Source: Candidatus Staskawiczbacteria bacterium (GTDB lineage: Bacteria > Patescibacteriota > Minisyncoccia > Minisyncoccales > Staskawiczbacteraceae). From it: a stretch of 64,000 nucleotides of DNA. Below, in pieces: positions 6,428-55,132 of the stretch (position 1 is the stretch's first letter; each line of letters opens with the position of its first letter). A model generated the notes under the pieces. That model made no database searches, had not been told where the DNA came from, and worked only from the letters and a program-made list of their open reading frames with translations. The stretch covers positions 82,083-146,082 of the forward strand of contig JAPLZF010000009.1 of the NCBI GenBank assembly GCA_026395175.1, given 5' to 3'. The position numbers and the translations under genes are program-made.

Positions 6428-6514
6428 AATGCTATTTTTTAATTTCTAATTTTGAATTTCGATTAAATTTTAAAATTCTAATTTCGAAATTCTGGTTTTA
6501 TTCGAAATTCGAAA
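6428..6514. repeat. Degenerate array of the GAAATTC/TTCGAAA heptamer repeat (family A) in the ftsA-ybeY intergenic region
   Basis: aatttctaattttgaatttcga ... ttcgaaattcgaaatt; it shares a roughly 25 nt core with the copy inside polX at 53899-53937. Confidence 0.6.
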
Positions 6515-6901
6515 TTAAAAATTCAAAATTTCTAAATACTTCTCTTCTTTCTCCTGCATTTTTATTTCTTCTGCTCTGCTTTTCTCGTGGTCATATCCGC
6601 ACAAGTGCAAAATGCCATGAACAAAAACTTCCATTATTTTTTCTTTCTTTTCTTTTACAACTTCCGGACAAATCACAATCTCGCCTAAATAATCTTTTTC
6701 GTTAAACAAAAAAGATAAAACGTCGGTAGGTTTATTTTTCCCGCGATATTTTTTATTAAGCTTTGCAATCTCGGCTTTTTCCACAAAAGCCAAAGATAGC
6801 GTTTCCGTTTCTCTATTTTCGCCTAATAAAACTTTTTTTGCAACCTGTGAAAAACTTTTCTTATCCACAGAAAACTTGGTGAGGTTATTTATCTCTATCA
6901 T
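6515..6901 (-). CDS. ybeY: rRNA maturation endoribonuclease YbeY
   Basis: HGILHLCGYDH metal-binding motif. Confidence 0.85.
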   Translation of the reverse strand: MIEINNLTKFSVDKKSFSQVAKKVLLGENRETETLSLAFVEKAEIAKLNKKYRGKNKPTDVLSFLFNEKDYLGEIVICPEVVKEKKEKIMEVFVHGILHLCGYDHEKSRAEEIKMQEKEEKYLEILNF

Positions 6902-12994: not shown

Positions 12995-13093
12995 AGTTTT
13001 AATCTTTATTTGTATTATATCATAGTTTTTAAACCTATACAAGGTGCCAATAAACCTATACATTTACCCTAATTTTCAGCCAAACAAAAACCG

Positions 13094-13113
13094 TCCTGAG
13101 CGAAGTCGAAGGG
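13094..13113 (+). repeat. Repeat family C copy (intergenic), part of a hairpin plus T-run downstream of the 13139-13828 gene
   Basis: tcctgagcgaagtcgaaggg followed by cggttttt. Confidence 0.5.
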
Positions 13114-17061: not shown

Positions 17062-17625
17062 ATGATAATTATTATTGGCCTGGGAAATCCGGGCAAACAA
17101 TATAAAAATACCCGCCACAATGTTGGATTTATGGCAGTTGACAGCTTTGCAGAGAAAAATAATTTCCCGGAGTTTAAGTTAAACAAAAAATTTAATTCTT
17201 TAGTTTCAGAAGGAATTATTGAAGAAGAAAAAATATTGCTCGCCAAACCTCAAACGTTTATGAATAACAGCGGTTCTGCAGTAAAATCCTTAATTCGAAA
17301 TTCGAAATTCGAAATTAGAAATTCTATCGTCGTGGTACACGACGATATAGATCTTCCTGTTGGAAAAATCAAAATCGTGCAAGAACGCGGTTCTGCCGGC
17401 CACAAAGGCGTTGAGTCAATAATTAAAAGCATTGGCAACAACGGCTTAGTAAGATTTCGCATAGGAATTGCAGGCAATAAAAAAACCGACGCCATGAAAG
17501 TTGTCTTAAAAAACTTTTCAGCAGAAGAGAAAAAAACATTGGATGAAACGATAGAAAAAATAACAGAAGCTTTAGACATGTTTATAAAAGAGGGTTTAGA
17601 AAAAACAATGAACAAATTTAATTAA
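17062..17625 (+). CDS. pth: Peptidyl-tRNA hydrolase
   Basis: MIIIIGLGNPGKQY...HNVGF motifs. It carries an in-frame heptamer-repeat insert encoding RNSKFEIRNS. Confidence 0.85.
   Translation: MIIIIGLGNPGKQYKNTRHNVGFMAVDSFAEKNNFPEFKLNKKFNSLVSEGIIEEEKILLAKPQTFMNNSGSAVKSLIRNSKFEIRNSIVVVHDDIDLPVGKIKIVQERGSAGHKGVESIIKSIGNNGLVRFRIGIAGNKKTDAMKVVLKNFSAEEKKTLDETIEKITEALDMFIKEGLEKTMNKFN
17291..17325 (+). repeat. (TTCGAAA)n heptamer tandem repeat (family A), in frame inside pth
   Basis: ttcgaaattcgaaattcgaaattagaaattc. Confidence 0.7.
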
Positions 17626-19188: not shown

Positions 19189-21153
19189 ATGGACGATAAA
19201 AATTTAAATCAGCTATTAATCGTTGGCATCACACCCTACTTTTTGGAAAAGGAGGGTTTTTGGTTTCAAAAAAATCTACAAGGAATATTAGAAGCAAGAC
19301 ATACTCAAAATTTTTTTGAAGACAATATAATTTTTTTGCAAAAAGATCACAGCTTTCAATTTTCGCAATTTTTAAGAAAGCTGGACGAAATGGGTTATGA
19401 AAGAGTTTTTAAGGTTTCAGAGCCAGGAGAGTTTTCACAACGCGGAGGAATTGTTGACGTCTTCCCCATCAACACAACAAATGCCGTAAGGCTGGATTTT
19501 TTGGGAAACGAAGTAGACCAAATAAAAATTTTAGACATAAAAGTTGCCGACGAAAAAAAATCAAAAAATATTCTAATAAAAAGATTAAAATCTCAAAAAA
19601 TATATTCTGAATTAAAGGGATTAAAAGAAGGAGATTATTTAGTTCACTTAGACCACGGAATTGGCAAATTTATAGGCATTGAAAAATTTAATACCACAAT
19701 AGAAGAATCCCAAAGTTATTATGTTTTAGAGTACGCGCAGGAAGATAAGTTATATGTTCCTTTAGGACTTGAAAGAAAGCTGTCTCGGTATTTTGGCTTT
19801 CAAGACCCAAAGGTTTCCAGGCTTGGTTCTTCTTTGTGGCAAAAAACAAAAAAAGCAGTAAAAGAAGAAGTTGAAAAATTAGCCAAAGAGCTTCTGCAGT
19901 TATATGCCCAGAAAGAAACCGCGCAAAGACCTCCTTATATAGAAGATTCAGAAATGGAGTCTAAGTTAAAAGACGGTTTTAATTTTCAAGAAACTCCAGA
20001 CCAAATCCAAACAATAGAAGACATAAAAAACGACTTATCAAAAACAAAACCAATGGACCGCATTGTTTGCGGAGATGTTGGCTTTGGCAAAACCGAAGTT
20101 GCAATGCGAACCGCTTTGTTGGCTGTTGCCAACAACAGGCAGACAGCTTTAATTTGCCCAACCACAATTTTGGCAAACCAGCATTATAATAACTTTAAAA
20201 AGCGGTTTGAAAATTTACCCGTAAGAATTGCCGAGCTTTCAAGGCTTCAATCAAAAAAAGAAGAAATAAAAGTTATAAAAGATTTAGAAGACGGCAGAAT
20301 AGACATTGTAATAGGCACGCACAAGCTTTTGTCAAAAAATATAAAGTTTAAAAACCTGCAACTTTTAATAATTGATGACGAGCAAAAATTTGGCGTAAAA
20401 CAAAAAGAAAGGTTAAGAAGCATAAAAGCCAGCCTAGATGTTTTGAGCTTGTCGGCCACTCCAATTCCCCGCACAATTTATTTGGCGCTTTCATCTTTAA
20501 AAAACATCAGCTTAATGCAAACTCCGCCGGTTGGCAGGCAGGCAATAAAAACAGAAATTTTGCCATATTCAGAAAAAGCAATAAAAAAAATAATTAACGA
20601 AGAGTTAAACAGAAAAGGCCAAGTTTATTTTTTGCACAACAGAGTTGAAAGCATAGATAAAAGGGCGCATGAATTAAAAAAACTTTGTAAAAATGCAAAA
20701 ATTAGCCTAATCCACGGCAGAATGCCAGAAGGTAAACTGATAAAAATAATGGATGATTTTCAAAAAGAAAAAACAAATGTGCTGGTTGCCACAACAATAA
20801 TAGAGAACGGATTGGACTTTCCAAACGTAAATACTATTATAATAGAAGACGCCACCAGGCTTGGGTTGTCTCAGGCTCACCAAATAAGAGGCAGAGTTGG
20901 AAGGTCCGGCACAAAAAGTTATGCCTATTTTATGTATTTAGAAAAAAACCTAACTCCTTTGGTTAAAGAAAGATTAAAAGCTTTGGAAGACTCGCAAGAA
21001 TTGGGTTCAGGCTACAGGCTTGCCATAAGAGACTTAGAATTGCGGGGAGCTGGCAATATTTTAGGCCGTGAACAATCTGGCGCCATAAACAAAATCGGTT
21101 TAAATTTATACAGCCAAATGATTTCTGAAGCCATCGAAAAATTCAAACAATAA
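19189..21153 (+). CDS. mfd: Transcription-repair coupling factor (short form lacking the N-terminal UvrB-homology domains)
   Basis: CarD-like RNAP-interacting domain, DEAD/H helicase motifs GFGKTEVA and LIIDDEQKFG, TRCF C-terminus. Confidence 0.8.
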   Translation: MDDKNLNQLLIVGITPYFLEKEGFWFQKNLQGILEARHTQNFFEDNIIFLQKDHSFQFSQFLRKLDEMGYERVFKVSEPGEFSQRGGIVDVFPINTTNAVRLDFLGNEVDQIKILDIKVADEKKSKNILIKRLKSQKIYSELKGLKEGDYLVHLDHGIGKFIGIEKFNTTIEESQSYYVLEYAQEDKLYVPLGLERKLSRYFGFQDPKVSRLGSSLWQKTKKAVKEEVEKLAKELLQLYAQKETAQRPPYIEDSEMESKLKDGFNFQETPDQIQTIEDIKNDLSKTKPMDRIVCGDVGFGKTEVAMRTALLAVANNRQTALICPTTILANQHYNNFKKRFENLPVRIAELSRLQSKKEEIKVIKDLEDGRIDIVIGTHKLLSKNIKFKNLQLLIIDDEQKFGVKQKERLRSIKASLDVLSLSATPIPRTIYLALSSLKNISLMQTPPVGRQAIKTEILPYSEKAIKKIINEELNRKGQVYFLHNRVESIDKRAHELKKLCKNAKISLIHGRMPEGKLIKIMDDFQKEKTNVLVATTIIENGLDFPNVNTIIIEDATRLGLSQAHQIRGRVGRSGTKSYAYFMYLEKNLTPLVKERLKALEDSQELGSGYRLAIRDLELRGAGNILGREQSGAINKIGLNLYSQMISEAIEKFKQ

Positions 21154-25025: not shown

Positions 25026-25109
25026 GCCGAGGTGGTGAAATTGGCAAACACGCCGGACTCAAAATCCGGTGCCCTTAAAAGCTTGAGGGTTCAAGTCCCT
25101 CCCTCGGCA
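25026..25109 (+). tRNA. tRNA-Leu (anticodon CAA), long variable arm, CCA not encoded
   Basis: Acceptor stem GCCGAGG/CCTCGGC, anticodon loop CTCAAAA, T arm GAGGGTTCAAGTCCCTC. Confidence 0.8.
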
Positions 25110-27729: not shown

Positions 27730-28294
27730 CATAACCCAAGTTGAATGCATTAATATTTAATTCTTTATATTTTTCCGGTACCATTTGGTCAATTGCTTTC
27801 AGCACAGATTCTTTTTTCATTGGAATTAAATTTTTGGCAACAGCATACCCCAAAGAATAAAGCGTGCAAACAATTTCATTCTGCAGTTTTTCTTTGCAGT
27901 CTTTTGAGGCTGGAATTATATAAGTTTCATTTTTAATCAAACCAAGCTGTTTTTTAATTTCCTCTGCCGTCAAAGACCCTAAAAACGGCAAAAAATAATC
28001 ATTAACCAAAAATTTTGTCTGCTTTCCAGATTTCTCTGTTTCGCGCAAGCCCTCCAGTATTTCCAAAGAAAGTATCAAGTCTGCCTTGCCGTTTGCAATC
28101 AAAGGAGAATTTACTTTTTTGCCAAACCTAATATGCGTTTCCACGCTTCCCCCTCTTTGCGAAAGTCCGTGCAATTCTGAAGACCTCACGTCATATCCTT
28201 CATTCATAGCTACCTGGTCAATCAAAATTAACAGCGTAATAACTCCCTGGCCGCCAACTCCATTAATTATCAAATTAAATATTTTATTGGTCAT
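27722..28294 (-). CDS. iorB: Indolepyruvate/2-oxoacid:ferredoxin oxidoreductase, beta (gamma-like) subunit
   Basis: NGVGGQGV motif; adjacent to iorA. Confidence 0.7.
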   Translation of the reverse strand: MTNKIFNLIINGVGGQGVITLLILIDQVAMNEGYDVRSSELHGLSQRGGSVETHIRFGKKVNSPLIANGKADLILSLEILEGLRETEKSGKQTKFLVNDYFLPFLGSLTAEEIKKQLGLIKNETYIIPASKDCKEKLQNEIVCTLYSLGYAVAKNLIPMKKESVLKAIDQMVPEKYKELNINAFNLGYGS

Positions 28295-29939
28295 GTTTTT
28301 CTGCTGTTTGTTTTTTTAATAATAGAGCGCAGATTTTTTTGCAAACAATCAAAGAAATTTCTTCTTTTTCTAAAAATTCTTTAACAACGTCTTCCAGTTC
28401 TTTTTGATTTATCGGGTCTAAAACTTTTATGTTTTTTACTCCGCAAGCCTTTGCAATTTCTTCAATTGAAAGTTCTGGGGCTTCTTCTCCCATCAAATTT
28501 TTTCCCATCCCGGGATTTGGCTGGTGCCCGGTCATTGCTGTAATTCTGTTATCCATTACAATCATCAAAGGGTTTGATTTGTTGTAAACAGCATTAACCA
28601 TTCCTGCAATTCCGGAATGAAAAAATGTGCCATCCCCCATAAAAGATATAACCTTTCGGCTTCGCTCAGGGCCTTCGGCCTTTAAAATGCCGTGGGCAAC
28701 ACCTATAGACGCGCCCATGCAAAACAAATAATCATACATTGAATGAGGAGGCAAAGCTCCAATCATGTTGCACCCAATATCTCCACCAAAAATTGTGCCT
28801 TCCGGGGCAATTCTTTTTATGGTTGGTAAAATATACCAATATGGGCAACCCTCACAAAGCCTTGCTGTTCTCTTTGGCAAATTCAAATTCTTTGTTTTAA
28901 ATTCGGCAAATTTCATTCCCACTACTTTTGACAAAGCGCCACAAACTTTTTCAGCGCTCAATTCTCCAATAATTGGCAAAACATTTTTGCCAAAAATTTC
29001 CATTTTTGCGTTTGCGTCTTTTGCCAACACAGCAATTTCTTTTTCAACATATCCTTCCAACTCCTCAACAACTAAAACTTTTTTTAATGGTTTTATAAAC
29101 TTTATAATTTTTTCTTTTGGTAAAGGATAAAAAGATCCAAGTTGCAAAACCGGCAAATCCAATTTCAATTCTTCCAAAGCCTCCATAACATGCAAACCTG
29201 CAACTCCCGAAGCTATTATTCCAACCTTCAAATTGTAGGACTTCGGGAGTCCTACAATTTTGTTGATTTTAGACTTTTCTGCATATGCCTGTATTTTTTT
29301 TATTTTTTCCAAAAGCTCTTTTTTCATTTCCAAGGTTCTTGGTGGCATTGTAGAATACTGATGCGGATTTTTGACGAAGTCACCCCGCGGAGTTTCAACG
29401 GAGTGGGGCTCATCCACCTCAACAACTGCCCGCTGGTGCGCGCATCTTGTAACAGTTCGTAAAATTACCGGCATATTAAATTTTTCAGAAATTTCAAAAC
29501 CAATTTTTGTAAAGTCGTAGCATTCCTGCGGATCTGCGGGCTCTAACATTGGAATATGGCCCAAATAAGCATACATTCTGGAATTTTGCTCAGATTGAGC
29601 CGAACTCCAGCAGGAAGGGTCGTCTGCCACCACAATCACCATTCCGCCTTTTGTGCCGGTGTAGGCCAATGGCAACAAAACGTCCGAGCACACATTAATT
29701 CCAAAGCTCTTCATATTCACCAAAACTTTCAAACCGGAAAAACTTGCTCCAATGGCAGATTCCAAAGCTGTTTTTTCGTTTGTAGCGTACTCTGCATAAA
29801 CCCCGTTTTCTTTGGCAATCTTGCCAAATTCGTCTCCAATTTCAGCCGATGGGCATCCGGGATATCCGGTAACATAAGAAACGCCCGATGCCAACGCCGC
29901 CCTAACTATTGCCTCATTCCCCAATAAAATTTTCTTCAT
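28284..29939 (-). CDS. iorA: Indolepyruvate:ferredoxin oxidoreductase alpha subunit (TPP-dependent)
   Basis: TPP-binding and CEGCPYW Fe-S motifs. Carries an in-frame 31-nt palindromic insert. Confidence 0.75.
   Translation of the reverse strand: MKKILLGNEAIVRAALASGVSYVTGYPGCPSAEIGDEFGKIAKENGVYAEYATNEKTALESAIGASFSGLKVLVNMKSFGINVCSDVLLPLAYTGTKGGMVIVVADDPSCWSSAQSEQNSRMYAYLGHIPMLEPADPQECYDFTKIGFEISEKFNMPVILRTVTRCAHQRAVVEVDEPHSVETPRGDFVKNPHQYSTMPPRTLEMKKELLEKIKKIQAYAEKSKINKIVGLPKSYNLKVGIIASGVAGLHVMEALEELKLDLPVLQLGSFYPLPKEKIIKFIKPLKKVLVVEELEGYVEKEIAVLAKDANAKMEIFGKNVLPIIGELSAEKVCGALSKVVGMKFAEFKTKNLNLPKRTARLCEGCPYWYILPTIKRIAPEGTIFGGDIGCNMIGALPPHSMYDYLFCMGASIGVAHGILKAEGPERSRKVISFMGDGTFFHSGIAGMVNAVYNKSNPLMIVMDNRITAMTGHQPNPGMGKNLMGEEAPELSIEEIAKACGVKNIKVLDPINQKELEDVVKEFLEKEEISLIVCKKICALLLKKQTAEKHDQ
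29230..29260. repeat. 31-nt palindromic element (family B), in frame inside iorA and encoding KIVGLPKSYNL
   Basis: aaattgtaggacttcgggagtcctacaattt, identical to 49235-49266. Confidence 0.7.
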
Positions 29940-29967: not shown

Positions 29968-30453
29968 TCAGTCCTCTTTTCCAGGGTTATCTAAATGTTT
30001 AATGATTTCGAAAGTTTTTCTCCCTCTATCATTATCTGCTTCATAAGCTAATTTCTCAGCCAATCTTTTTAAATCTTCCTTAGTTGATTGTTCATCGGGC
30101 ACCCACCCTTCTCTTGACCCCTGCCTTAAGATTTCTTCTGTTATTTTATGTATCCTGTTATCTTCAGCAAGTTGTTCTGGAGACATATTTTTGCGTCTTT
30201 TCTCATTAAATCTTCTTGTTTGTTCTCCCATTTCAGCATAATGTCGCGCCAACTCTACTTCTGATAATTCACCAAGTGTCTTTGACCTTCCTTTCCTATT
30301 TTCTTTAGCAAGGTCTTTTGGAGATAATCTTGCCCGTCTTTCATCGTCTTGTTTTAGCAACTCGTCCCATCTACGTTGCCTATCTGCATCTGATTCTTCA
30401 CCAACTTGTTTTGGCTCTGAATCTTTTTCAAAACCTGGATTTTCTATTGACAT
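29968..30453 (-). CDS. Hypothetical highly charged protein
   Basis: ORF only; K/E/R/D-rich. Confidence 0.45.
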   Translation of the reverse strand: MSIENPGFEKDSEPKQVGEESDADRQRRWDELLKQDDERRARLSPKDLAKENRKGRSKTLGELSEVELARHYAEMGEQTRRFNEKRRKNMSPEQLAEDNRIHKITEEILRQGSREGWVPDEQSTKEDLKRLAEKLAYEADNDRGRKTFEIIKHLDNPGKED

Positions 30454-30551
30454 GATTTTTCCTTTCTAATTACGATGGGTTAAATTTAATTTAACACAAA
30501 TTAATAAAAAGTATTATATAATAATATTGATTAATTTATTTATAACGAAAA

Positions 30552-31406
30552 TTATTTTAATTTTTTTATAGCTTCAGGCGTTTGTAAAAAATTATGTCCG
30601 TTGACAACCTTTTTGCCGGTTTTGGTTTCTAATTCTAATCGCGCATTTTTGGCGATACGTCCGCCTTTTTGGGCTGGAATCTTATTTTCTTCAAATCCTT
30701 TTGCTTTTTCGGTCTCAGCAATTTCTCGTGTGGAAAGCTCTGCTAAAGCTGTGAAAACCAATTCGGCATCTGTCATATGGTCTCGCAAATTTTGTGTTTT
30801 TAAATTTTTCAATTTTTTATGTTCTTTAACCGATAAGTCGCTCCATTCTTGATGGATAATATTTGTTAAAATGGCATACTCATCTTTTTCTTTGACTTCG
30901 TTGTCTTTCCAATAATCAGTTAATTTATTTCTAATTTCCTGGCCCATCATTCTTTGCTGAATCCATTTTTGGCTTCTGCCCATTCTTTGCCAATTTTTTC
31001 TTCCTCTGTCAATTGATTTTTCAGGGTCGGCTGTTTCCTGAATTCTTTCATAGCCAACCCGAGCCAGCCAAAGTTTTATTGGTTCGGCTTTTGGGCTTGG
31101 CACCGATTGAATCAAACGAAATAATGTTTCTGCATCAGCAGAATCGGTTAAATACAATTTTCCATCAGAGGCCGGCATTTTGAGTTGGTTACATTTTGTA
31201 ACCAAATGAAACCCTTCTTTTTTATGGCGATTTTTCAATACCTTCCAATAATTTCTTGCCAACTTAAAATCTGTTTGATCAGTCAAAACTTGGATAATAT
31301 CTACTACTGAAAAATACCATTTCTCTTTTTTCTCATCCCAAAGCCTGCGTATTTTTTGACCTTCAAATATCGCAAGTTGTTTATTTTTTAATTTTTTGCT
31401 TTTCAT
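30552..31406 (-). CDS. Bro-N / DinD-like (DNA-damage-inducible protein D family) protein
   Basis: N-terminal LAIFEGQKIRRLWDEKKEKWYFSVVDIIQVL resembles Bro-N. Confidence 0.5.
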   Translation of the reverse strand: MKSKKLKNKQLAIFEGQKIRRLWDEKKEKWYFSVVDIIQVLTDQTDFKLARNYWKVLKNRHKKEGFHLVTKCNQLKMPASDGKLYLTDSADAETLFRLIQSVPSPKAEPIKLWLARVGYERIQETADPEKSIDRGRKNWQRMGRSQKWIQQRMMGQEIRNKLTDYWKDNEVKEKDEYAILTNIIHQEWSDLSVKEHKKLKNLKTQNLRDHMTDAELVFTALAELSTREIAETEKAKGFEENKIPAQKGGRIAKNARLELETKTGKKVVNGHNFLQTPEAIKKLK

Positions 31407-35182: not shown

Positions 35183-36672
35183 TTTTTGTTTTCTAGTCTC
35201 GGAAATAAAATTTCTGACCTGCCCTGAGCGGAGTCGAAGGGTTTTTCAACTACTTTTTTTATTTTTTCTGAAGTTTGTGGCAAAAATGGTTCCAGCAAAA
35301 TTCCAATTTCTTTTATAGCAAAAAATAAGTCATTAATAACTTCCATTTTTTTTGCCTGCCCAGAGCTGGTCGAAGGGGTTTCCCAAAGTTTTTCTTCATT
35401 TATATATTTGTCGCAAAAACTTATTATTTCCCAAACAGAAATTAAAGCTTCGTTAAATTTAAAACTTTCAATGGCTAATTTATAATTTTTTTGCGTTTTT
35501 TCAATTTGTTTTTTTAATTCTAAATTTGAAAATTTATTCGAAATTCGAAATTCAAAATTCGAAATTTTGTCTGATATTCCCAATGTTCTTGCTACCAGAT
35601 TGCCAATACCGCCGGCTAAATCGGCGTTGTATCTTTGCTCAAATTTTTCGTATGTAAAATCACCATCCTCTGCAGAGACGATTTCTCTTAACAAATAATA
35701 TCTAACTGCATCAACTCCATATTTGTTTACCAGCTCAAAAGGGTCAACTACATTTCCCAAAGATTTTGACATTTTTTGCCCGCCAACATTTATAAATCCA
35801 TGAACAAAAATCTTTTTAGGGAGAGCAAGCTTAGCCGACAAAAGCATTGCTGGCCAAAATATGGTATGAAACTTCATTATATCTTTGCCTAAACAATGAA
35901 CGTCTGCTGGCCAATATTTTTTGAATTGCTCTGTTTCATTGTCATATCCAATAGCCGAAATATAATTTGGCAAAGCGTCGCACCAAACATACATTACCTG
36001 TTCTGGGTCTCCCGGAACTTCAAACCCCCAATATTTATCTTTTGTTCTGGAAAAGCTTACATCTTCCATACCTTGCTTCAACATTGATAAAGTTTCATTC
36101 TTTCTAGACTCGGGAATAATTTCTATTTCGCCACTCCTAATTTTTTCTTCCACTTCTTTAGTATATTTTGAAAGCCTAAAAAAATAATTTTCTTCTTCAA
36201 CAAATTCCAGCTCTTTCAAATGTATAGGACACTTGCCATCAACTATTTCTTTTTCTGTTTTAAATGCCTCGCATCCTGGGCAATAATAACCTTTATATTT
36301 TTTCTTATAAATATCGCCTGCTTCATCTAATTTTTTCCAAAGCTTTTCTACTGCTGGCTTGTGCTTTGTTTCATCTGTGGTTCTTATAAAGTCATTATTT
36401 GATATATTTAAAATTTTTGTCAGCTCTCTAAATTTGCCAGAAATTCCATCGGCAAAATCTTTTGGGTCACGGCCCGCTTCTCTCGCCACCCTTAAGGTTT
36501 TAATGCCGTGTTCATCTGTGCCGGTCAGGAAAAAAACATCTTCACCTAAACACTTATGATATCTTGCCAAAACATCTGCCTGAATTGCCTCCAACGCAAA
36601 GCCAATGTGCGGAGGCGCATTTGTGTAGGGAATGCTGGTGGTGATATAGAATTTTTTGTTTTTATTTGTCAT
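35179..36672 (-). CDS. metG: Methionyl-tRNA synthetase
   Basis: PYTNAPPHIGH and KMSKS motifs. Start moved to MTNKNKK. Carries in-frame repeat inserts from families A and C. Confidence 0.85.
   Translation of the reverse strand: MTNKNKKFYITTSIPYTNAPPHIGFALEAIQADVLARYHKCLGEDVFFLTGTDEHGIKTLRVAREAGRDPKDFADGISGKFRELTKILNISNNDFIRTTDETKHKPAVEKLWKKLDEAGDIYKKKYKGYYCPGCEAFKTEKEIVDGKCPIHLKELEFVEEENYFFRLSKYTKEVEEKIRSGEIEIIPESRKNETLSMLKQGMEDVSFSRTKDKYWGFEVPGDPEQVMYVWCDALPNYISAIGYDNETEQFKKYWPADVHCLGKDIMKFHTIFWPAMLLSAKLALPKKIFVHGFINVGGQKMSKSLGNVVDPFELVNKYGVDAVRYYLLREIVSAEDGDFTYEKFEQRYNADLAGGIGNLVARTLGISDKISNFEFRISNKFSNLELKKQIEKTQKNYKLAIESFKFNEALISVWEIISFCDKYINEEKLWETPSTSSGQAKKMEVINDLFFAIKEIGILLEPFLPQTSEKIKKVVEKPFDSAQGRSEILFPRLENKK
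35222..35241 (+). repeat. Repeat family C copy in the metG C-terminus (KPFDSAQGRS)
   Basis: ccctgagcggagtcgaaggg. Confidence 0.6.
35359..35377 (+). repeat. Repeat family C copy in metG (PSTSSGQ)
   Basis: cccagagctggtcgaaggg. Confidence 0.6.
35523..35568. repeat. Heptamer repeat family A array, in frame in metG (ISNFEFRISNKFSN)
   Basis: aatttgaaaatttattcgaaattcgaaattcaaaattcgaaatttt. Confidence 0.65.
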
Positions 36673-36706: not shown

Positions 36707-37180
36707 ATGATTCTGTTAGTCCATCTTTTATTTGGAACGGCAATCGGGTCTGCGGTAAACAACGTTTGGCTGGCTATTATTTTAGCCTTTATAAGCCATT
36801 ACCTTTTAGACCTCCTCCCCCATATTGAGTATAATATCCAAAATATAGAACAAAAACAATGGCACAAAGCCCTACCGGACATTTTAAGAGTAATTTTAGA
36901 TTTTTGTCTGGGAATTTTACTTATATTTATCTTATCTAAGAATAATCCTATTATTTATATTTGCGCCTTTTTTGCCTTACTGCCGGACGGCTTAACTGTT
37001 TTTAATACTCTTTTTCCAAACAAAATTTTAGAACCTCTCCAAAAATTTCACATAGAAAAAATCCATTTCCTAAAAGAAAACCCTTCGACAAGCTCAGGGC
37101 AAGAAAAAATCTCCACTTTCTGGAGAATTTCAACTCAAGTCGTAGTAATTATAATTTCTATAGTTTTATTTAGAATATAG
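36707..37180 (+). CDS. Membrane-bound metal-dependent hydrolase-like protein (DUF457/YdjM-like)
   Basis: LVHLLFGTAIG...SHYLLDLLPH pattern in a polytopic membrane protein; start moved to the internal ATG. Confidence 0.5.
   Translation: MILLVHLLFGTAIGSAVNNVWLAIILAFISHYLLDLLPHIEYNIQNIEQKQWHKALPDILRVILDFCLGILLIFILSKNNPIIYICAFFALLPDGLTVFNTLFPNKILEPLQKFHIEKIHFLKENPSTSSGQEKISTFWRISTQVVVIIISIVLFRI
37091..37109 (+). repeat. Repeat family C copy, in coding orientation (NPSTSSGQ)
   Basis: cccttcgacaagctcaggg. Confidence 0.6.
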
Positions 37181-39496: not shown

Positions 39497-40170
39497 AGTT
39501 GTAATCTTATTTTTATTATTTGCCCAACCATTTTTACACGGCTTATAAAGCCTTTGCAAAACCCGTATTTTTTTTCTTTAATTATTATTGAGAGCTTGGG
39601 CAATTTTACATATTTTACGAGCAACTTTTTATTTATGCAATAATGGTTTAACGCCAGCTCCACTGCAAATTTTTGAATAAATTTTTCCGGAATGTCTTCT
39701 AATATAGCCCGCTTAATTGCCCGCTCTCCTCCAATTGCCAACAAAGGATCAATTTTTACAACCAGTTTAGGAAACCCAAAAAACCTGTCTCTTATTCCAA
39801 CACACATATCAGCATTATCTTTTACCATTGGCTCCAAAAGCAAATAAATATGTTTTTGTGATAAACCAATCAAATCTGCGTCAAAGAAAACAATAATTTC
39901 AGCATTGGTTGCATTCAAGCCTTGTTTCATTGCGTTTCCCTTGCCTTTGTTTTCAGATAACTTCAAAACTTTAACTCCCAGGTTTTTTCCAATTTCTGCG
40001 GTTTTGTCAGTCGAGCCATCATCAACCAAAATTACCTCATCCAAATCTTTCGAGCTTAAAAGAACTTTCAAAACATTCCCGACATTTTTTTCTTCGTTAT
40101 ATGCCGGCACAATCGCCGCAATCCTTCGACGTGGCTCAGGACCTTCGGTTTTTTCAACAAAGTTTATCAT
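39475..40170 (-). CDS. Family 2 glycosyltransferase (dolichol-phosphate mannosyltransferase-like)
   Basis: IVPAYNEE ... VDDGSTD GT-A motifs. Confidence 0.75.
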   Translation of the reverse strand: MINFVEKTEGPEPRRRIAAIVPAYNEEKNVGNVLKVLLSSKDLDEVILVDDGSTDKTAEIGKNLGVKVLKLSENKGKGNAMKQGLNATNAEIIVFFDADLIGLSQKHIYLLLEPMVKDNADMCVGIRDRFFGFPKLVVKIDPLLAIGGERAIKRAILEDIPEKFIQKFAVELALNHYCINKKLLVKYVKLPKLSIIIKEKKYGFCKGFISRVKMVGQIIKIRLQLCIKKQL

Positions 40171-43786: not shown

Positions 43787-44500
43787 TTAAGATGGACAAA
43801 ACGAATTAAAAGCATTTTCTGAAATTTCTGACAGCATTTTCTGATAAGCCGGTTCAACTTTTAATTTAGACAATGTCTGCCAATCTTTTGATAAAATAAT
43901 CCTTAATATTTTTACAATGTCTGAATTCACTATTTTTGCTGATTTGTCGTTGCTAAAACATTTTTCGCAAATAATGCCGCCTTCTTTAGCAGAAAAATAA
44001 ATACTGCGCGGGTTTAATTTTTCATGGCAATTTGCGCAATTCTGGACTTCGCAATGGTACCCCAGCAAAGAAAAAACATTCCACAAAAAATAATAATAAA
44101 CTAATTGCTTGTTCTTAACCTGCCCATTTAATCTTTCAATTGTTTCGTCTAATAAATTAAAAATATCTTTGTCTTTTTGTTCGCCTTTTACAAAATTATC
44201 CAAAACTTCTGCTATTTTGTTGGCAATTTCAAACTTCTCCAAGTCACAATAAACATTGCCAAACTTTTTAGTTGCCACGGCATCCGTGAGGGTTTTCTTT
44301 ATTTTGCCCTGTATAAATTCTATTTCCGACACAAAAAAAATATCAATTCCGCTTCTTAATTTTGAAGCATTTTTTCTTATGGCTTTGGCAAAAATATCCA
44401 ATCTTCCAAAGTCGTCTGTAAAAACAGAAAAAACCCTGTCTGATTCATTTGCATCATTCTTTTTAAAAACAAAAGCTCTTGTTTTATAGCGAGTCGTCAT
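43787..44500 (-). CDS. recO: DNA repair protein RecO
   Basis: OB-fold N-terminus and C-terminal zinc finger CANCHEKL...CEKC. Confidence 0.75.
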   Translation of the reverse strand: MTTRYKTRAFVFKKNDANESDRVFSVFTDDFGRLDIFAKAIRKNASKLRSGIDIFFVSEIEFIQGKIKKTLTDAVATKKFGNVYCDLEKFEIANKIAEVLDNFVKGEQKDKDIFNLLDETIERLNGQVKNKQLVYYYFLWNVFSLLGYHCEVQNCANCHEKLNPRSIYFSAKEGGIICEKCFSNDKSAKIVNSDIVKILRIILSKDWQTLSKLKVEPAYQKMLSEISENAFNSFCPS

Positions 44501-47676: not shown

Positions 47677-48258
47677 TTAATTTAGTTGTCTTAGTTCTGC
47701 TGTGCCAATTTCCTCTCTTTTTAAATAAAAATCTTTGTTTGGTATTCCTTTGACCGTGCAACTTAAAAAAAGAATTGGAAGCTCGTGGCTGATTATTAAA
47801 ATATTTTTACCTTTGTATTTTTTGTCTGTGTCTTTCAAAAAATCTACCATTCGTTTTTTAATCTCAATGTATGTTTCGCCGTTTTTCGGCCTTATCTTAA
47901 ACCTTCTCAAACCTCTTTCGCCAAAAAAAATACTCATCCCCATAAAAGGCAACCCGTTAAAATCTCCTGCCCCTTGCTCTCTCAGCCTTTTATCAATTTT
48001 TGGCTTTATATGCAAAATTTTTCCCACAATTTCAGCTGTCATTTTTGTTCTCAGCAACGGAGAACAAAAAATTAAATCAATGCTTCGACCCTGCTCAGCA
48101 CAGGTGTTTTTAAGCTTTTTGGCTGTTTCTTTTGCTTTCTGCCTGCCAATTTTTGTTAAAGGATTATAAAATTTTTCCGGCCAGCAGGATACAAGCTCTT
48201 TTACGTTTGAAATTGCCTGCCCGTGCCGCATTATATAATATTTGTTATTTAGCTTCAT
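47677..48258 (-). CDS. Histidine phosphatase (phosphoglycerate mutase-like) family protein
   Basis: IMRHGQAISN RHG catalytic motif. Confidence 0.7.
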   Translation of the reverse strand: MKLNNKYYIMRHGQAISNVKELVSCWPEKFYNPLTKIGRQKAKETAKKLKNTCAEQGRSIDLIFCSPLLRTKMTAEIVGKILHIKPKIDKRLREQGAGDFNGLPFMGMSIFFGERGLRRFKIRPKNGETYIEIKKRMVDFLKDTDKKYKGKNILIISHELPILFLSCTVKGIPNKDFYLKREEIGTAELRQLN

Positions 48259-49825
48259 TTCTTTTTAGTTCTTTAGGGGTTGATATTCCCATTAATTTCA
48301 GCGCATTCTCCAAAACAATTTTTGTTGCCAATATTAAAGACAAGCGGGCTTCTGTTAATTTTTTATCTTCAGTAACAACTCTGCATTTTTCATAAAACTT
48401 ATGGAATGAATCTGCCAGTTCAATTGCATAATTTGGCAGACGTTGCAGTTGATAATCATTTGCGCTGTCTCCAATAATTTCCGGAAATCTTATTAATTGT
48501 TTTATCAATTCTAATTCACTTTGCTCTTTCAACAAATCCAAATTATTTGTTTTTGCTTTAATTTTAGATTTTGCAAAAATGCTGTTTATTCTGGCATAAG
48601 CATATTGCACTTTAAAAACCGGGTTTTTGTCTGACTTTTCTTTTGCCAAGTCCATATCAAAATTAAAATGCGTGTTTAAAGACCTTTGCAAAAAGAAAAA
48701 ACGCGCAACATCCAGGCCAACCTCGTCAATTAATTCGTCAATGGTTACATAAATTCCTGTTCTTTTAGACATGCGCACTTCTTTGCCGTTTTCAAAAAGC
48801 TTTACCAATTGCAAAACAATTGCATCAACATTTTCTTTGTTATAACCCAACGCTTGGCAAGCAGCTTTCAACCTTGCCACATAGCCGTAATGGTCTGCTC
48901 CTAAAAATATTATTAATTTGTCAAAGCCTCGCTCAAATTTATTTCTTAAATAGGCAATGTCTGAGGCAAAATAGGTTTTAACCCCATCCTCTCTTATCAA
49001 AACCCTGTCTTTGTCGTCTCCTAGTTCAGATGATTTAAACCACAAAGCGCCTTCGCTTTCGTAAGCAAAACCCTTTTTTGTGAGTTCTGCGATTGTTTTG
49101 TCCACTACGCCATTTTTATACAAAGTTGTTTCAGAAAACCAGGTATCAAATTTAATGCCCATCCTTTTCACAGACGGCTTTATCATTTTTTCTAAAATTA
49201 TCTTTCCTGCCTTTTCACCAATTTCTTCAGCTTTAAAATTGTAGGACTTCGGGAGTCCTACAATTTCTTTTCTTAAATCCTCAATATACTTTCCGGAATA
49301 AACCGCTTCTTCGTCTCCAATTACTGAATGTCCCAGCTTTGTAATTTGAGCGCCAATATCATTTATGTAATATTCTCTTGAAACTTTATATCCGGCTTTT
49401 TCTAAAACCTTTGCCAAAACATCTCCACCAAATCCGCCTCTTCCATTGCCCAGTGTCAAAGGCCCCGTGGGATTTGCAGAAATAAACTCCACATTTATTT
49501 TTTGTTTTTTCCCAATATTTGAGCTCCCAAATTTTTCCTTTCCTTTTAAAACTTTCTGCACCTGCTCTTTTAAATATTTTTCTGAAAGATAAAAATTAAT
49601 AAACCCATTTACAACTTCTATTTTAGAAAATAATTTATTTTTTTGTTTTTCTATTTCTGTTTTTATCAGCTCTGCCGTTTCGCGAGGATTTTTATTTTCT
49701 TTTTTCGCCAAAATCAACGCAACGTTGCTTGAATAATCTGCATGGCTTGAAGTTTCAACAGAAAAGTTCAGGACTTCTCCTTTAATAACTTTCTCAATTA
49801 TTTTTTTGATTTCTTCTTTTATCAT
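48245..49825 (-). CDS. argS: Arginyl-tRNA synthetase
   Basis: Class I HIGH-like SANPTGPLTLG motif and DALR anticodon-binding domain. Carries the in-frame 31-nt palindrome. Confidence 0.85.
   Translation of the reverse strand: MIKEEIKKIIEKVIKGEVLNFSVETSSHADYSSNVALILAKKENKNPRETAELIKTEIEKQKNKLFSKIEVVNGFINFYLSEKYLKEQVQKVLKGKEKFGSSNIGKKQKINVEFISANPTGPLTLGNGRGGFGGDVLAKVLEKAGYKVSREYYINDIGAQITKLGHSVIGDEEAVYSGKYIEDLRKEIVGLPKSYNFKAEEIGEKAGKIILEKMIKPSVKRMGIKFDTWFSETTLYKNGVVDKTIAELTKKGFAYESEGALWFKSSELGDDKDRVLIREDGVKTYFASDIAYLRNKFERGFDKLIIFLGADHYGYVARLKAACQALGYNKENVDAIVLQLVKLFENGKEVRMSKRTGIYVTIDELIDEVGLDVARFFFLQRSLNTHFNFDMDLAKEKSDKNPVFKVQYAYARINSIFAKSKIKAKTNNLDLLKEQSELELIKQLIRFPEIIGDSANDYQLQRLPNYAIELADSFHKFYEKCRVVTEDKKLTEARLSLILATKIVLENALKLMGISTPKELKRNEAK
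49235..49266. repeat. 31-nt palindromic element (family B), in frame in argS and encoding EIVGLPKSYNF
   Basis: aaaattgtaggacttcgggagtcctacaattt. Confidence 0.7.
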
Positions 49826-50520
49826 TGGATAATAGTGCCTACAAATGGCTTGTTATTTAAGCAATCTTCAAGGCGGTCTAAATTTTTTCCGTTAATTATA
49901 ACAACTTTCAGCTTTAATTTTGAAGCCAGCTTTGAAGCCCTTGGATCAAACGGCATTGAAAGCCCGGGGTTCCATTTGTCTCCAACAATTCTTTCAAAAC
50001 TTTTCCAATCAATTTCTTTTAATGCTTTGGCATCGGGAAACTGATTTGGGTCTTTATCATAAACATAATCAATGTTTGAAAGATTTATTATGGTTTTTAC
50101 ATTATGATTTTTTGCAATTAGCACAGCGTCGTAGTCTGTTGACCAGCCGGGTTTCCAGCCGGCTCCCACAATAACATCTTTGTTGGTTTTTACTTTTATA
50201 TTTGGGTCGGTGATAACTTTTGGATAAGCATTACCAACAAACATTTGCTTTATAACTTCAGCATTAAGCCTTGTAATGTTAATTCCAATCCAATCTCGGT
50301 CTTTGCTTTGCCCGCCAAACTCCAAAAGAGCATTTTGATAATTCCTGGCAACTTTCCCTCCCCCAACTATAATAAAAAATTTAAATCCTGAGCCTGTCGA
50401 AGGGCCGTTTCCGATATATTTTTGAAGAGTATGCTTAAAACTTTTCAAAAATCCCAGGTCAATATTATCTGGAACCACCAACGACCCACCCAATGAAATT
50501 ATAATAGTTTCTTTATTCAT
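49822..50520 (-). CDS. pyrH: UMP kinase (amino-acid kinase family, archaeal-like)
   Basis: ISLGGS ... IVGGGK.AR amino-acid-kinase motifs. Contains a family C insert (NGPSTGSGFK). Confidence 0.6.
   Translation of the reverse strand: MNKETIIISLGGSLVVPDNIDLGFLKSFKHTLQKYIGNGPSTGSGFKFFIIVGGGKVARNYQNALLEFGGQSKDRDWIGINITRLNAEVIKQMFVGNAYPKVITDPNIKVKTNKDVIVGAGWKPGWSTDYDAVLIAKNHNVKTIINLSNIDYVYDKDPNQFPDAKALKEIDWKSFERIVGDKWNPGLSMPFDPRASKLASKLKLKVVIINGKNLDRLEDCLNNKPFVGTIIQ
50387..50404 (+). repeat. Repeat family C copy in pyrH
   Basis: cctgagcctgtcgaaggg. Confidence 0.6.
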
Positions 50521-51034: not shown

Positions 51035-51481
51035 ATGAAGATATTCAGTGAAAACAAAAAGGCGGGGTTTAACTATGAAATCCTAGAGAAGTTTGAAGCC
51101 GGGATGGTTTTGTTTGGCCAGGAAGTTAAATCAATAAAAACCGGGCACATCAATTTGTCCGGGTCTTATGTTGTTTTTAACAGGTCAGAGCCCTATTTAA
51201 CCGGCGTAAAAGTGCCTCCATACCAGCCAAACAACATTGGAGCCGACTATAATGAAGAAAGGCAAAGAAAACTTCTTTTAAACAAAAAAGAGATAGATTA
51301 TTTGGCGGGCAAGACCAAAACCAAGGGTTTTAGCTTAATACCCTTGAAAATTTATGAGAACAATGGTAGAATAAAACTCGAATTCGGGTTAGCCCGCGGA
51401 AAGAAGAAATTCGACAAAAAGGAGAAAATTAAAAAACGGGATGTCGACCGAGAGGTTAATCGCGAATTATCACGGGGATGA
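51035..51481 (+). CDS. smpB: SsrA-binding protein
   Basis: GFNYEILEKFEAGMVL..EVKS SmpB signature. Confidence 0.85.
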   Translation: MKIFSENKKAGFNYEILEKFEAGMVLFGQEVKSIKTGHINLSGSYVVFNRSEPYLTGVKVPPYQPNNIGADYNEERQRKLLLNKKEIDYLAGKTKTKGFSLIPLKIYENNGRIKLEFGLARGKKKFDKKEKIKKRDVDREVNRELSRG

Positions 51482-51827
51482 TTGTTTCGATGACTAGTTC
51501 TTTAAAACAAGGCAAGTTAAGCTTTCTCAGGGCTTATAAATCTTCTGGGAAAAAACATAATTGCTACTAATTTATTTAATAGACAACCAGCATTAGCTTT
51601 CGCTTAATGCGGCATCTCAACCATTGACTCCTAATAAATGGACCTGAGGTGTTATATTATTAGGATAGGAATTCTGAGTCCTTGGCAGATTTCCAAAATA
51701 AAAAGGATAAGATGTTAAAAATTTTGCTATTTCTTTATTTGACATCCTAAAAAACAGAACTAGCTAAACTTGTAGAATTGCTTTAGAAAACTTTTCAGAC
51801 GCGATTTCAACATCGCCATCTCCACCA
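51474..51827 (+). ncRNA. ssrA: tmRNA (SsrA); its 5' GGGGATG pairs with 3' CATCTCC-A-CCA; predicted tag ATNLFNRQPALAFA
   Basis: tRNA-like 3' end GACGCGATTTCAACATCGCCATCTCCACCA and 5' GGGGATGATTGTTTCGATGAC resemble E. coli tmRNA; the candidate tag reading frame ends in TAA; sits downstream of smpB. Confidence 0.75.
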
Positions 51828-53408: not shown

Positions 53409-55132
53409 TACTTAAAATACTTTAATAATTTTTCTACTGAATTCGTGTTTATAATATCTTCTTTCTCGGACCAGCCTCTTCGTGCTTGCGCAATTCCATA
53501 TTCCATAAAATTTAATTGCTCTTTTTGGTGAGCGTCTGTGTTTATTATCATTTTTATTCCGGCCTCTTTTGCTCTTCTAATGTAAAAACCATTCAAATCA
53601 AGCCTTTCCGGGGCAGAGTCAATTTCCAAAATTGTTCCTGTTTTTTTGGCAACTTCCAAAATTTTATCAAAGTCCATTTGGTACTCATCTCTTTTCCCAA
53701 TCAGTCTTCCTGTTGGATGCCCAAATATATCAACATTTTTATTTTGCATTGCTTTTACTATTCTTTGGGTCATTTCTTTCTTTTCCATTTTCATATTTGA
53801 ATGCACGCTGGCAATTGCATAATCCAGTTTTTCTAAAACTTCATCTTTAATATCAAGACTGCCATCTGCCATTATATTAACTTCACATCCATGCAATATG
53901 CGAAATTTCGAATTTCTAATTTTGAATTTCGAATTTAATTGTTCTATTTTTTTATTCTGGGCTAAAAGTTGTTTTTCGTTTAAGCCATGCGTTATTCCTA
54001 AAGATTTCGTATGGTCTGAAATGCCAACATATTCATATCCCATATTTATTGCCGCTTTAACCATTTCTTCAATTGAATTCTCTCCATCGGAAGCTGTTGT
54101 GTGGCAGTGCAAGTCACCTTTAATATCTTTATATCCTATTATTTTTGGCAATTCATTTTTTAAACCAGCCTCAATTTCTCCTTCATTTTCGCGAAGCTCG
54201 GGCTCAATATACGGAAGCCCAATTGCCTTATAAACGCCTTCTTCTGTCTCGCCTGCAATCTGCTTTTTCCCTTTAAATATTCCATATTCAGAAAGCTTTA
54301 AACCTTTTGAAATAGCAATTTTCCTTGTAATAATGTTATGGTCTTTGTTGCCGGTAAAATATTGCAAAGCAGACCCATAGCTTTCTTTTTTTACAACTCT
54401 CAAATCCATATCAAATCCTTCTCTTATCCTAACCGAAGCTTTTGTTCCGCCCTTGCCCCAAACTTTTTCTACTCCGTCCAACTTCACAAAAAAATCCATA
54501 ACTTTGGCAGGATTTTTAGAAACAACTAGAATGTCCACGTCCCCAATTGTTTCTTTTCTTCTTCTTACAGATCCCGCCAAGCTAATCTGGTCAACTTCTT
54601 CCAAGCTTTTTAATTTTTCCAAAACATTTCTGGCAGTAGGCAAAATTTGCCCAATTGGAAACCTGCCTTTATCTCTTTTTAAAAATTCCAAACCCTGCAA
54701 AATATTTTTTTCTGTTTTTTCTCCAAAACCAAATAGGGGAGCCACTTTGTGGGCATTAGCAACTTTTTCCAAATCCTTTAAATTTTTAACTCCCAATTTT
54801 TGATATAATATTTTTGCCTTTTTCACTCCCATCCCTTCAACCCTAACCAGCTCATCCAATTTCAACGGTAATTTTTTCTTAAAATCTTCATAATGTTTTA
54901 TTTTTCCAGTTTTTAAATATTCTTCTATGTGGTCAGCAATTGCTTTGCCAACTCCGGGAATTTCCAGCAAAGCTTTAACTCCTCCTTTTTTATAAATGTC
55001 GCCCACGTCCTCGCTCAGGCCTTCTAAAGACAAAGCTGCCCTTTGGTACGCATAGGGCTTAAAAGCCACGCCGTCGGCTTCCAAAAATCTTGCCATATCA
55101 TTGAAAACTTTAGCCAATTCCTGATTTCTCAT
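53408..55132 (-). CDS. polX: DNA polymerase X family protein with a C-terminal PHP domain
   Basis: N-terminal HhH/pol-beta-like domain, nucleotidyltransferase GDVD region, PHP histidines. Carries an in-frame heptamer-repeat insert. Confidence 0.8.
   Translation of the reverse strand: MRNQELAKVFNDMARFLEADGVAFKPYAYQRAALSLEGLSEDVGDIYKKGGVKALLEIPGVGKAIADHIEEYLKTGKIKHYEDFKKKLPLKLDELVRVEGMGVKKAKILYQKLGVKNLKDLEKVANAHKVAPLFGFGEKTEKNILQGLEFLKRDKGRFPIGQILPTARNVLEKLKSLEEVDQISLAGSVRRRKETIGDVDILVVSKNPAKVMDFFVKLDGVEKVWGKGGTKASVRIREGFDMDLRVVKKESYGSALQYFTGNKDHNIITRKIAISKGLKLSEYGIFKGKKQIAGETEEGVYKAIGLPYIEPELRENEGEIEAGLKNELPKIIGYKDIKGDLHCHTTASDGENSIEEMVKAAINMGYEYVGISDHTKSLGITHGLNEKQLLAQNKKIEQLNSKFKIRNSKFRILHGCEVNIMADGSLDIKDEVLEKLDYAIASVHSNMKMEKKEMTQRIVKAMQNKNVDIFGHPTGRLIGKRDEYQMDFDKILEVAKKTGTILEIDSAPERLDLNGFYIRRAKEAGIKMIINTDAHQKEQLNFMEYGIAQARRGWSEKEDIINTNSVEKLLKYFK
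53899..53937. repeat. Heptamer repeat family A, in frame in polX (NSKFKIRNSKFRI)
   Basis: gaaatttcgaatttctaattttgaatttcgaattt, nearly identical to the core at 6440-6465. Confidence 0.7.

Follow-up and report, generated by a model that had tools for sequence, protein, structure and literature searches.

In the 64,000-nucleotide stretch of a Candidatus Staskawiczbacteria genome that we analysed (the window), a 31-nucleotide hairpin, AAATTGTAGGACTTCGGGAGTCCTACAATTT, occurs twice, once in a gene for an IorA-like enzyme and once in the gene for arginine-tRNA ligase (ArgS), and is translated in both as the peptide IVGLPKSYN. On balance, we favour the view that it is a very small palindromic module, similar to repetitive extragenic palindromic (REP) sequences and to Rickettsia palindromic elements (RPEs), which was copied between chromosomal sites and is carried as a translated passenger in a flexible loop or linker, the ArgS copy being older and the IorA copy recent. 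The element is of no evident benefit to either enzyme. It would be tolerated because it is read in frame and because of its position, which is a flexible surface loop in ArgS and an inter-domain linker in IorA.

The two copies, both on the minus strand, are identical without a single mismatch at positions 29230-29260 and 49236-49266. The sequence-only reading of the window had already noticed this repeat, but had placed the start of the second copy at 49235, which is an extra A. No match is expected by chance, even with 3 mismatches allowed (100 dinucleotide-preserving shuffles), and degenerate or half copies of the 31-mer are found nowhere else in the window. The element had been described as a perfect palindrome with an 11-bp hairpin. 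In fact, two complementary arms of 13 nt form a 13-bp stem around a 5-nt loop (in mRNA sense, AAATTGTAGGACT-CCCGA-AGTCCTACAATTT), and this is the longest perfect hairpin of the window. The loop (TCGGG on the plus strand, CCCGA in the mRNA) is not self-complementary, and the orientation of the element is therefore defined. The ends are AAATT/AATTT, and a GTAG at element positions 6-9 is paired with CTAC of the opposite arm. On the plus strand, the copies are flanked by C and T (29229/29261) and by A and C (49235/49267), respectively. Folding of the mRNA-sense RNA with 10-nt flanks gave -17.8 kcal/mol (z -6.7) for the ArgS copy and -18.2 kcal/mol (z -4.3) for the IorA copy. Since the palindrome is centred on the second base of a CCG codon, the codons of its two arms are mutually reverse-complementary (I/N, V/Y, G/S).

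The first host gene (28284-29939, minus strand) codes for a 551-residue IorA-like thiamine pyrophosphate enzyme (100% identical to P0121) with the domains POR_N (PF01855) and TPP_enzyme_C (PF02775), which is named indolepyruvate ferredoxin oxidoreductase alpha by JGI. The second (48245-49825, minus strand) codes for an ArgS of 526 residues (100% identical to P0001), whose best solved relative is 3fnr from Campylobacter jejuni (E 2e-82). As the sequence-only reading had stated, the element is translated as the same peptide in these unrelated genes. It lies in them in the same orientation and frame, giving K-IVGLPKSYN-L-K in IorA (peptide residues 228-236) and E-IVGLPKSYN-F-K in ArgS (188-196), and both open reading frames (ORFs) remain open and full-length. 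In the AlphaFold2 model of ArgS (mean pLDDT, the predicted local distance difference test, 92.8), residues 189-198 are a coil between helices 179-188 and 199-221, and pLDDT falls to about 62 for residues 191-200. In that of IorA (mean pLDDT 86.7), residues 228-238 link helix 201-222 to the first strand (239-244) of the next domain, with a pLDDT of about 67 for residues 231-240. Both sites thus look permissive in the models, as a flexible surface loop and an inter-domain linker. The structure 3fnr aligns without a gap through the insert region, indicating that this part of the protein is variable in length among ArgS enzymes generally.

Two further features were seen in and around the IorA gene. 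Between LeuS and IorA (29968-31406) there are genes for a 161-residue protein without a Pfam match and a 284-residue Bro-N-domain protein; both are missing from the syntenic loci L004 and L017, where LeuS directly abuts IorA, and they form a small inserted island beside the IorA copy. The conserved IorA motif F-G-K-N-V-L-P is coded by a palindrome with a 9-bp stem (28973-28993; TTGGCAAAA CAT TTTTGCCAA on the plus strand), and a similar sequence is found in RecO (43950-43970).

The orthologue comparison, proposed in the sequence-only reading as a check, was made with the best 120 sequences each of ArgS and IorA, the window proteins included, and it bore out the expected absence of the peptide. 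IVGLPKSYN was found in none of the 119 IorA relatives and in only one of the 119 ArgS relatives, P0002 from the JGI metagenome contig L002 (83% amino acid identity), where it occupies the same site. Most ArgS relatives have x-K-(I/V)-K-G-K-(D/N)-P-E there and are 6 residues shorter, and the closest IorA relatives (84-86%) have N-K-I-(S/I)-G-K-(N/Q)-N-K and are 4-5 residues shorter. In one close metagenome-assembled genome (MAG), both sites are empty (P0003 and P0127, neighbouring accessions of one assembly). In L002, all 31 nucleotides are identical to those of the window at the same ArgS site, and the adjacent codons differ synonymously. Identity between the two ArgS genes is 80% overall and 62% at third positions; their longest identical run is 38 nt, with the element inside it. 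The chance that 10 codons with identical amino acids would all be identical between the two genes is P about 0.013.

The L002 copy also bears on the question of whether the repeat is an artefact of MAG assembly (a chimera) or an independent convergence of two loops. Such explanations could point to the metagenomic source of the window and to the presence of two copies only. However, L002 is an independent contig with the same 31-mer at the same ArgS site in an otherwise diverged sequence, both host ORFs are intact, and the chance expectation is 0; it is not credible that two loops converged on the same 31 bases, 9 of which, in the apical part, are unrelated to either flank. We therefore regard the artefact reading as having next to no probability overall and as effectively refuted for the ArgS copy.

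In the L002 gene, a synonymous change from TTT to TTC makes the stem 14 bp long by recruiting the ArgS-specific G of GAA. This extension of the palindrome by one pair into the ArgS-specific flank points to ArgS as the probable source. Judged from these sequences, the presence of the ArgS copy in a second lineage and the reach of the palindrome into the ArgS flank mark this copy as the older of the two; the copy in IorA, carried by the window genome alone, is secondary and recent. The sequences P0001 and P0002 (filled) and P0003 (empty) form a trio whose branching is not resolved (83-85% identity, with the insert left out of the comparison).

Although lineage-specific extra material is indeed present in both proteins, it is not the clean in-frame insertion of 31 nt or nine residues that had been proposed. 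The element codes for 10-11 residues, and the net gain is only about 4-5 residues in IorA and 6 in ArgS; if 30 or 33 nt were cut out, the remaining loops would be about 5 residues below the shortest among the 119 relatives of each protein. The left arm reads AAA/GAA ATT GTA GGA in the gene sense, i.e. K/E-I-V-G. The sequence N-K-I-V-G is native in many element-free IorA relatives (e.g. P0140, P0158, P0166, P0179 and P0192), and (K/V)-(I/V)-V-G is found in some ArgS relatives (P0011, P0022 and P0056). Judging from these relatives, the left arm in IorA (29250-29260, minus strand; AAATTGTAGGA, codons K-I-V-G) was probably there before the element. The part apparently added would be 21 nt in IorA (29229-29249, minus strand; CT-CCCGA-AG-TCCTACAATTT-G, coding for L-P-K-S-Y-N-L), matched by 21 nt in ArgS (49235-49255, minus strand; CT-CCCGA-AG-TCCTACAATTT-T, coding for L-P-K-S-Y-N-F). 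Without these 21 nt, IorA would read N-K-I-V-G-K-V-G-I-I and have the same length as the insert-free L008 IorA (N-K-I-S-G-K-V-G-I-V), and ArgS would read R-K-E-I-V-G-K-A-E-E-I-G, at most one residue from the length of empty relatives (x-K-E-I-K-G-R-T-P-E-E-V-G). The added part (about 21 nt) therefore looks like the loop together with the distal arm, which is the reverse complement of codons that were already present; this reading is based on the sequences of relatives and not on ancestral DNA.

This geometry argues for an explanation that needs no mobile element. A fold-back template switch would have made the hairpin once in ArgS, as the reverse complement of the native E-I-V-G codons, and a switch between the loci at the 11-nt microhomology AAATTGTAGGA would have pasted the loop and the distal arm into IorA; arm-to-arm switching would keep the hairpins perfect. 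That template switching gives rise to hairpins, maintains them and changes coding sequence has been documented (PMC8794818, PMC8604942, PMC5453318). The window element resembles its products in that the new arm is the reverse complement of adjacent prior sequence, the net change in length is smaller than the hairpin, the arms co-evolve and the coding change is a multinucleotide one. The native K/E-I-V-G in relatives of both proteins, the small size of the extra sequence (about 21 nt, loop and reverse complement of the left arm) and the continuation of the L002 palindrome into the ArgS-specific flank all support this explanation, as does the lack of a transposase among the window ORFs that were scanned against Pfam (50 of the 67 called). 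On the other hand, a rare inter-locus switch is required. Moreover, template-switch products are local and unique to their locus, whereas the 31 nt of the window occur at two loci 20 kb apart and their 9-nt apical part is not derived from the flanks.

Different hairpins, overlooked in the sequence-only reading, occur at the same two protein sites in other lineages. About a dozen scattered lineages have a variant of the ArgS site that is 5 residues longer (K-K-L-L-G-G-Q-T-P-Q-Y-S-A-E and relatives). All four variants that were read as DNA are hairpins with the layout TATTG + 6 nt + C(A/G)G + 6 nt + CAATA, in which the 6-nt segments are GGGGGT/ACTCCC in L008, GGACGT/ACGTCC in L009, GAGAGT/ACCCTC in L015 and CAAGGC/GCCTTG in L016. 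In these four sequences, 5 of the 11 stem pairs were changed on both sides and 95.5% of the cells were paired, which was equalled in none of 500 shuffles and was lost when the partner was shifted by 1-3 columns; this covariation comes from only four sequences. The stem is kept through compensatory changes at this ArgS site in lineages down to about 65% protein identity. The window hairpin has ATTG..GGAC/GTCC..CAAT in common with that of L009, but contains an extra symmetric TA step and is read in another codon phase. The compensatory double changes and the symmetric TA indel would fit a homogenisation of arms by template switching. Almost every hairpin-bearing ArgS has empty sequences as its nearest relatives, e.g. 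P0113/P0119 (81%) and P0068/P0063 (83%), again compared without the insert; this patchiness may reflect repeated gain, repeated loss or exchange of a short segment by recombination. At the IorA site of the window, L008 carries a hairpin, TAC AGA CGT CGG ACG TCT GAA ATA, between AAA ATT and TCT GGA. It forms a clean insertion of 24 nt, placed between N-K-I and S-G-K, and has a core, GACGTCGGACGTC, that is similar to the ArgS hairpin of L009. The insert of the P0205 IorA (GNTPAQSGK), guessed to be a hairpin by back-translation, was ruled out as one by its DNA.

In L015, the core of a diversity-generating retroelement (bAvd and an RVT_1 reverse transcriptase; 1189-2587) lies directly upstream of the AA-kinase-ArgS operon. 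A link between this retroelement and the hairpin was considered and dropped, as neither a reverse transcriptase nor Avd was found in the window.

The preservation of the stem might also mean that the hairpin is a selected cis-acting element, i.e. a site of RNA processing or stability, an antisense terminator or a palindromic DNA-binding site, with the extra residues as its price. The identity of all 31 nt in an orthologue with 62% third-position identity (the P of about 0.013 for 10 codons), the compensatory changes at the ArgS site and the common orientation of both copies are in line with this explanation. In addition, the plus strand, which is antisense to both genes, scores as terminator-like at both copies, with a 14-pair stem and a T-rich tail. 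Such a tail, however, is expected anywhere opposite these A-rich coding strands, and the score is probably a by-product of them. A terminator on the sense strand was dropped as a candidate, since the site is in the middle of the coding sequence and no T tract follows the stem. The distribution is patchy, most close relatives having no hairpin at either site; the host genes are functionally unrelated, with the hairpin at different positions within them; the element is known from one narrow lineage only; and the Rfam 15 scan of the window, at gathering score, returned only transfer-messenger RNA (tmRNA) and one tRNA and no family matching the hairpin. We consider a selected function improbable.

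Related hairpins are also found away from these two sites. About 28 nt of the ArgS hairpin of L009 are found again in an intergenic spacer of a different Patescibacteria MAG (L011). A genome scan for this type of sister hairpin (ATTGGGNNGTCAGACNNCCCAAT) gave 4 matches, about the number expected by chance, of which only the intergenic one in L011 looks related. A GC-rich 33-nt hairpin (AGGATCCNCGACGGCTNTGCCGTCGGGAC...) is 29/33 identical between L010 (2120-2152, in IorA, region of residue 43) and L004 (13416-13448, in Sua5), in opposite orientations; each copy lies in a clean in-frame insertion of 14-15 residues that is missing from four orthologues. Three of the four hairpin types start with (A/T)(A/T)TTG and end with CAA(A/T)(A/T), in different codon phases. 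Hairpins with TTG...CAA ends number 12 in the window, compared to 2.6 in mononucleotide shuffles, which are a crude null. In the syntenic loci obtained, perfect stems of at least 6 bp were present in 27% of 63 windows around lineage-specific inserts and in 11.8% of 6300 windows taken as controls in the same genes (p = 8e-4), and stems of at least 7 bp in 12.7% and 5.0%, respectively (p = 0.013). The enrichment of hairpins in lineage-specific inserts is real but modest.

For an origin by template switching without any mobile element, these relatives are difficult. Neither arm is native to the host gene in the L008 IorA hairpin and in the GC-rich family of L010 and L004, and the GC-rich 33-mer (29/33) is found in different genes, genomes and orientations. 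We consider this explanation possible but rather unlikely.

Returning to the view that the 31-mer is a copied palindromic module, we propose that a single-stranded hairpin intermediate would be copied into sites already similar to its basal arm, which is A/T-rich and contains TTG. The addition would then be limited to the loop and the distal arm, about 21 nt, and the hairpin would afterwards be held perfect by arm-to-arm correction. The copying agent could be a hairpin-recognising transposase encoded elsewhere and acting in trans, or template switching between microhomologous sites during replication. For this pair of copies we lean slightly towards template switching. The transposase route is without an enzyme candidate in the window and does not explain the partial insertion. 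The dispersal of the sister families, with their intergenic and inverted copies and clean insertions, would be in keeping with a transposase acting in trans.

Several observations weigh against the copied-module view. There is no target-site duplication at either copy, the plus-strand flanks containing no direct repeat. The insertion is not clean, with about 4-6 residues gained against 10-11 encoded and a left arm that looks native. Selection for a function of the hairpin could equally be behind its perfect conservation in L002 and the compensatory changes of the sister hairpins. The 50 ORFs scanned against Pfam code, apart from those without a match, for housekeeping proteins and DNA methylases, and no transposase, HUH/Y1 enzyme, integrase or reverse transcriptase is among them. 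Finally, there are two copies in 64 kb and no more in 185,579 genomes, JGI contigs or IMG/VR, which lends no support to a high-copy family.

The copy number in the source genome is established for the window only. The pattern TTGTAGGACTN5AGTCCTACAA had no match in the 185,579 GTDB species-representative genomes, and its single match in JGI metagenome contigs was an intergenic hairpin of a phage-like contig, which has another loop and is unrelated. The 31-mer pattern had no match in IMG/VR, and the phage and plasmid collections gave weak chance matches only (E >= 0.8). A profile of the window-insert peptide found nothing in 1.84 billion representatives, which is a weak test, as representatives at 50% identity hide lineage-specific inserts; a synthetic IVGLPKSYN profile covering all four open frames yielded no candidate and missed known positives as well, and was thus uninformative. 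Apart from the ArgS copy of L002, which came from the comparison of ArgS relatives, the wider search for the 31-mer that the sequence-only reading had suggested recovered no other copy in any collection searched. The "element family" of that reading consists of two copies in 64 kb and one orthologous copy in another metagenome, and the term family is at least overstated.

We also considered and dropped several other known structures. A CRISPR repeat does not apply, as there is no array. Translational bypass of the T4 gene 60 type was rejected because there is no stop codon and ArgS has no matching take-off and landing codons. The loop contains CCG and could be taken for a mimic of the tRNA-Arg anticodon arm serving ArgS autoregulation, but position 33 is a C, the sister loops are CAG or CGG, and the same hairpin is present in IorA. 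A canonical GTAG-REP was excluded, as the tag is base-paired.

The element nevertheless has much in common with known repeats. REPs are stem-loops of 20-40 bp with a stem of 5-13 bp and a loop of 2-20 nt, and by definition one of their ends carries an unpaired GTAG or CGTC tetranucleotide; some REPs that lie within genes and are translated have been recorded, among them the short Rickettsia elements RPE-4 and RPE-6, and have been argued to lie in linkers or loops (PMC3733652, Di Nocera et al. 2013). With its 31 nt, 13-bp stem and 5-nt loop, the window element is inside the REP size range (PMC3733652, Table 1) and, like some REPs, it is genic and translated, is placed in a linker or loop and varies in presence among close relatives. 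Unlike in REPs, its GTAG is paired inside the stem and is not an unpaired end tag. REPs have tens to thousands of copies, mostly extragenic, whereas both copies of the window element are genic; no REP-associated tyrosine transposase (IS200/IS605-type Y1) was found among the Pfam-scanned ORFs, and the host, a bacterium of the candidate phyla radiation (CPR), is outside the phyla listed in PMC3733652.

Classical RPEs (RPE-1 type; Ogata et al.) are, as summarised in PMC10969869, about 100-150 bp long, with 44 copies in R. conorii, and code for a conserved peptide of tens of residues. With them the window element shares the palindromic repeat, the in-frame position in unrelated housekeeping genes, the same peptide in each copy (here in the same frame in IorA and ArgS), the absence from nearly all relatives, and sites compatible with the fold, which are seen here as local pLDDT dips in otherwise confident models of the ArgS loop and the IorA linker. 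It differs in having no sequence similarity to RPEs and in being five times shorter, with 31 nt, 9-11 encoded residues and a net gain of about 4-6 that overlaps native codons. The comparison with RPEs made in the sequence-only reading is a fair analogy, the more so as this genome has other short in-frame repeat families, but the element is neither an RPE nor a REP as these are defined. [quoted passage not shown] It is therefore not a member of the canonical REPs, RPEs or MITEs. No description of such elements in Patescibacteria or CPR was found in the literature, our coverage of which was incomplete.

The window contains further short repeats. Runs of 7-nt units (AATTCGA and variants) are located at 17279-17328 (Pth), 35512-35571 (MetS) and 53902-53948 (PolX), where they are translated in frame as IRNSKFEIRNS, ISNFEFRISNKFSN and NSKFKIRNSKFRI, respectively, and at 6433-6538, between FtsA and YbeY and into the 3' end of YbeY; similar peptides are found in L008 IorA and IleS (KIKNSFQISNFKFQI, SKFQIP). 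This is presumably the first in-frame family of the sequence-only reading. A third dispersed short element has the consensus CCTTCGAC-NNN-GCTCAGGGCA, with 7 matches at up to 3 mismatches against 0 expected, plus looser copies (1667-1687, 13092-13112, 28653-28673, 35220-35240, 35353-35373, 37088-37099, 40123-40143, 48082-48102, 50383-50400 and 61375-61395). Its hosts are a radical-SAM gene, IorA (antisense, AEGPERSRK), MetS twice (PSTSSGQA, DSAQGRS), histidine phosphatase, Mur ligase and AA-kinase (PSTGSGF) genes and spacers, and it is also present in L002 IleS and L017 Sua5. In the histidine-phosphatase gene, an 11-bp hairpin (48042-48070; TTTTTGTTCTC AGCAACG GAGAACAAAAA) lies 12 nt from a copy of CCTTCGAC...GCTCAGG. 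Direct repeats of 43-56 nt with 75-92% identity connect distant spacers (1137-1184/60269-60316, 48-103/17967-18022 and 1203-1245/19104-19146). A spacer of L008 (Licking1014_1 genome) has two identical 23-nt palindromes, TGTTTAACCCCAGGGGTTAAACA, 86 nt apart (20698-20720 and 20784-20806), adjoined by a perfect 30-nt palindrome (20595-20624). The tmRNA gene directly after smpB (51474-51827) and the single tRNA gene (25026-25109) are both ordinary.

Tentatively, and with some doubt of our own, we put forward a broader proposal. Staskawiczbacteria and related Parcubacteria may carry undescribed, ultra-short palindromic elements (about 25-45 nt), often with (A/T)TTG...CAA(A/T) ends whatever the frame, which would insert in frame into essential genes, appear repeatedly at the same permissive loops (the ArgS loop and the IorA linker) in different lineages and retain perfect stems through paired changes of the arms. 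If so, they would be a steady source of variation in loop length in reduced genomes and a system for studying hairpin-based copying without an obvious transposase. Palindromic repeats that are read in frame are a textbook peculiarity of Rickettsia, and a few phyla are known to have scattered intragenic REPs; to our knowledge, and as far as our literature searches show, RPE-like behaviour in a CPR bacterium and at a much smaller size is new. Since a loop and one arm appear to have been added to native codons, hairpins recur at the same loops and their arms compensate each other, our results suggest that hairpin-forming DNA, rather than ordinary indels, may be the origin of some of the many small insertions that are typical of CPR proteins. 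For annotation, this is a warning that in these genomes a short loop insert restricted to one lineage can be derived from repeats. The two copies described here also provide a concrete test case for distinguishing the transposase-driven from the template-switch spread of short palindromes.

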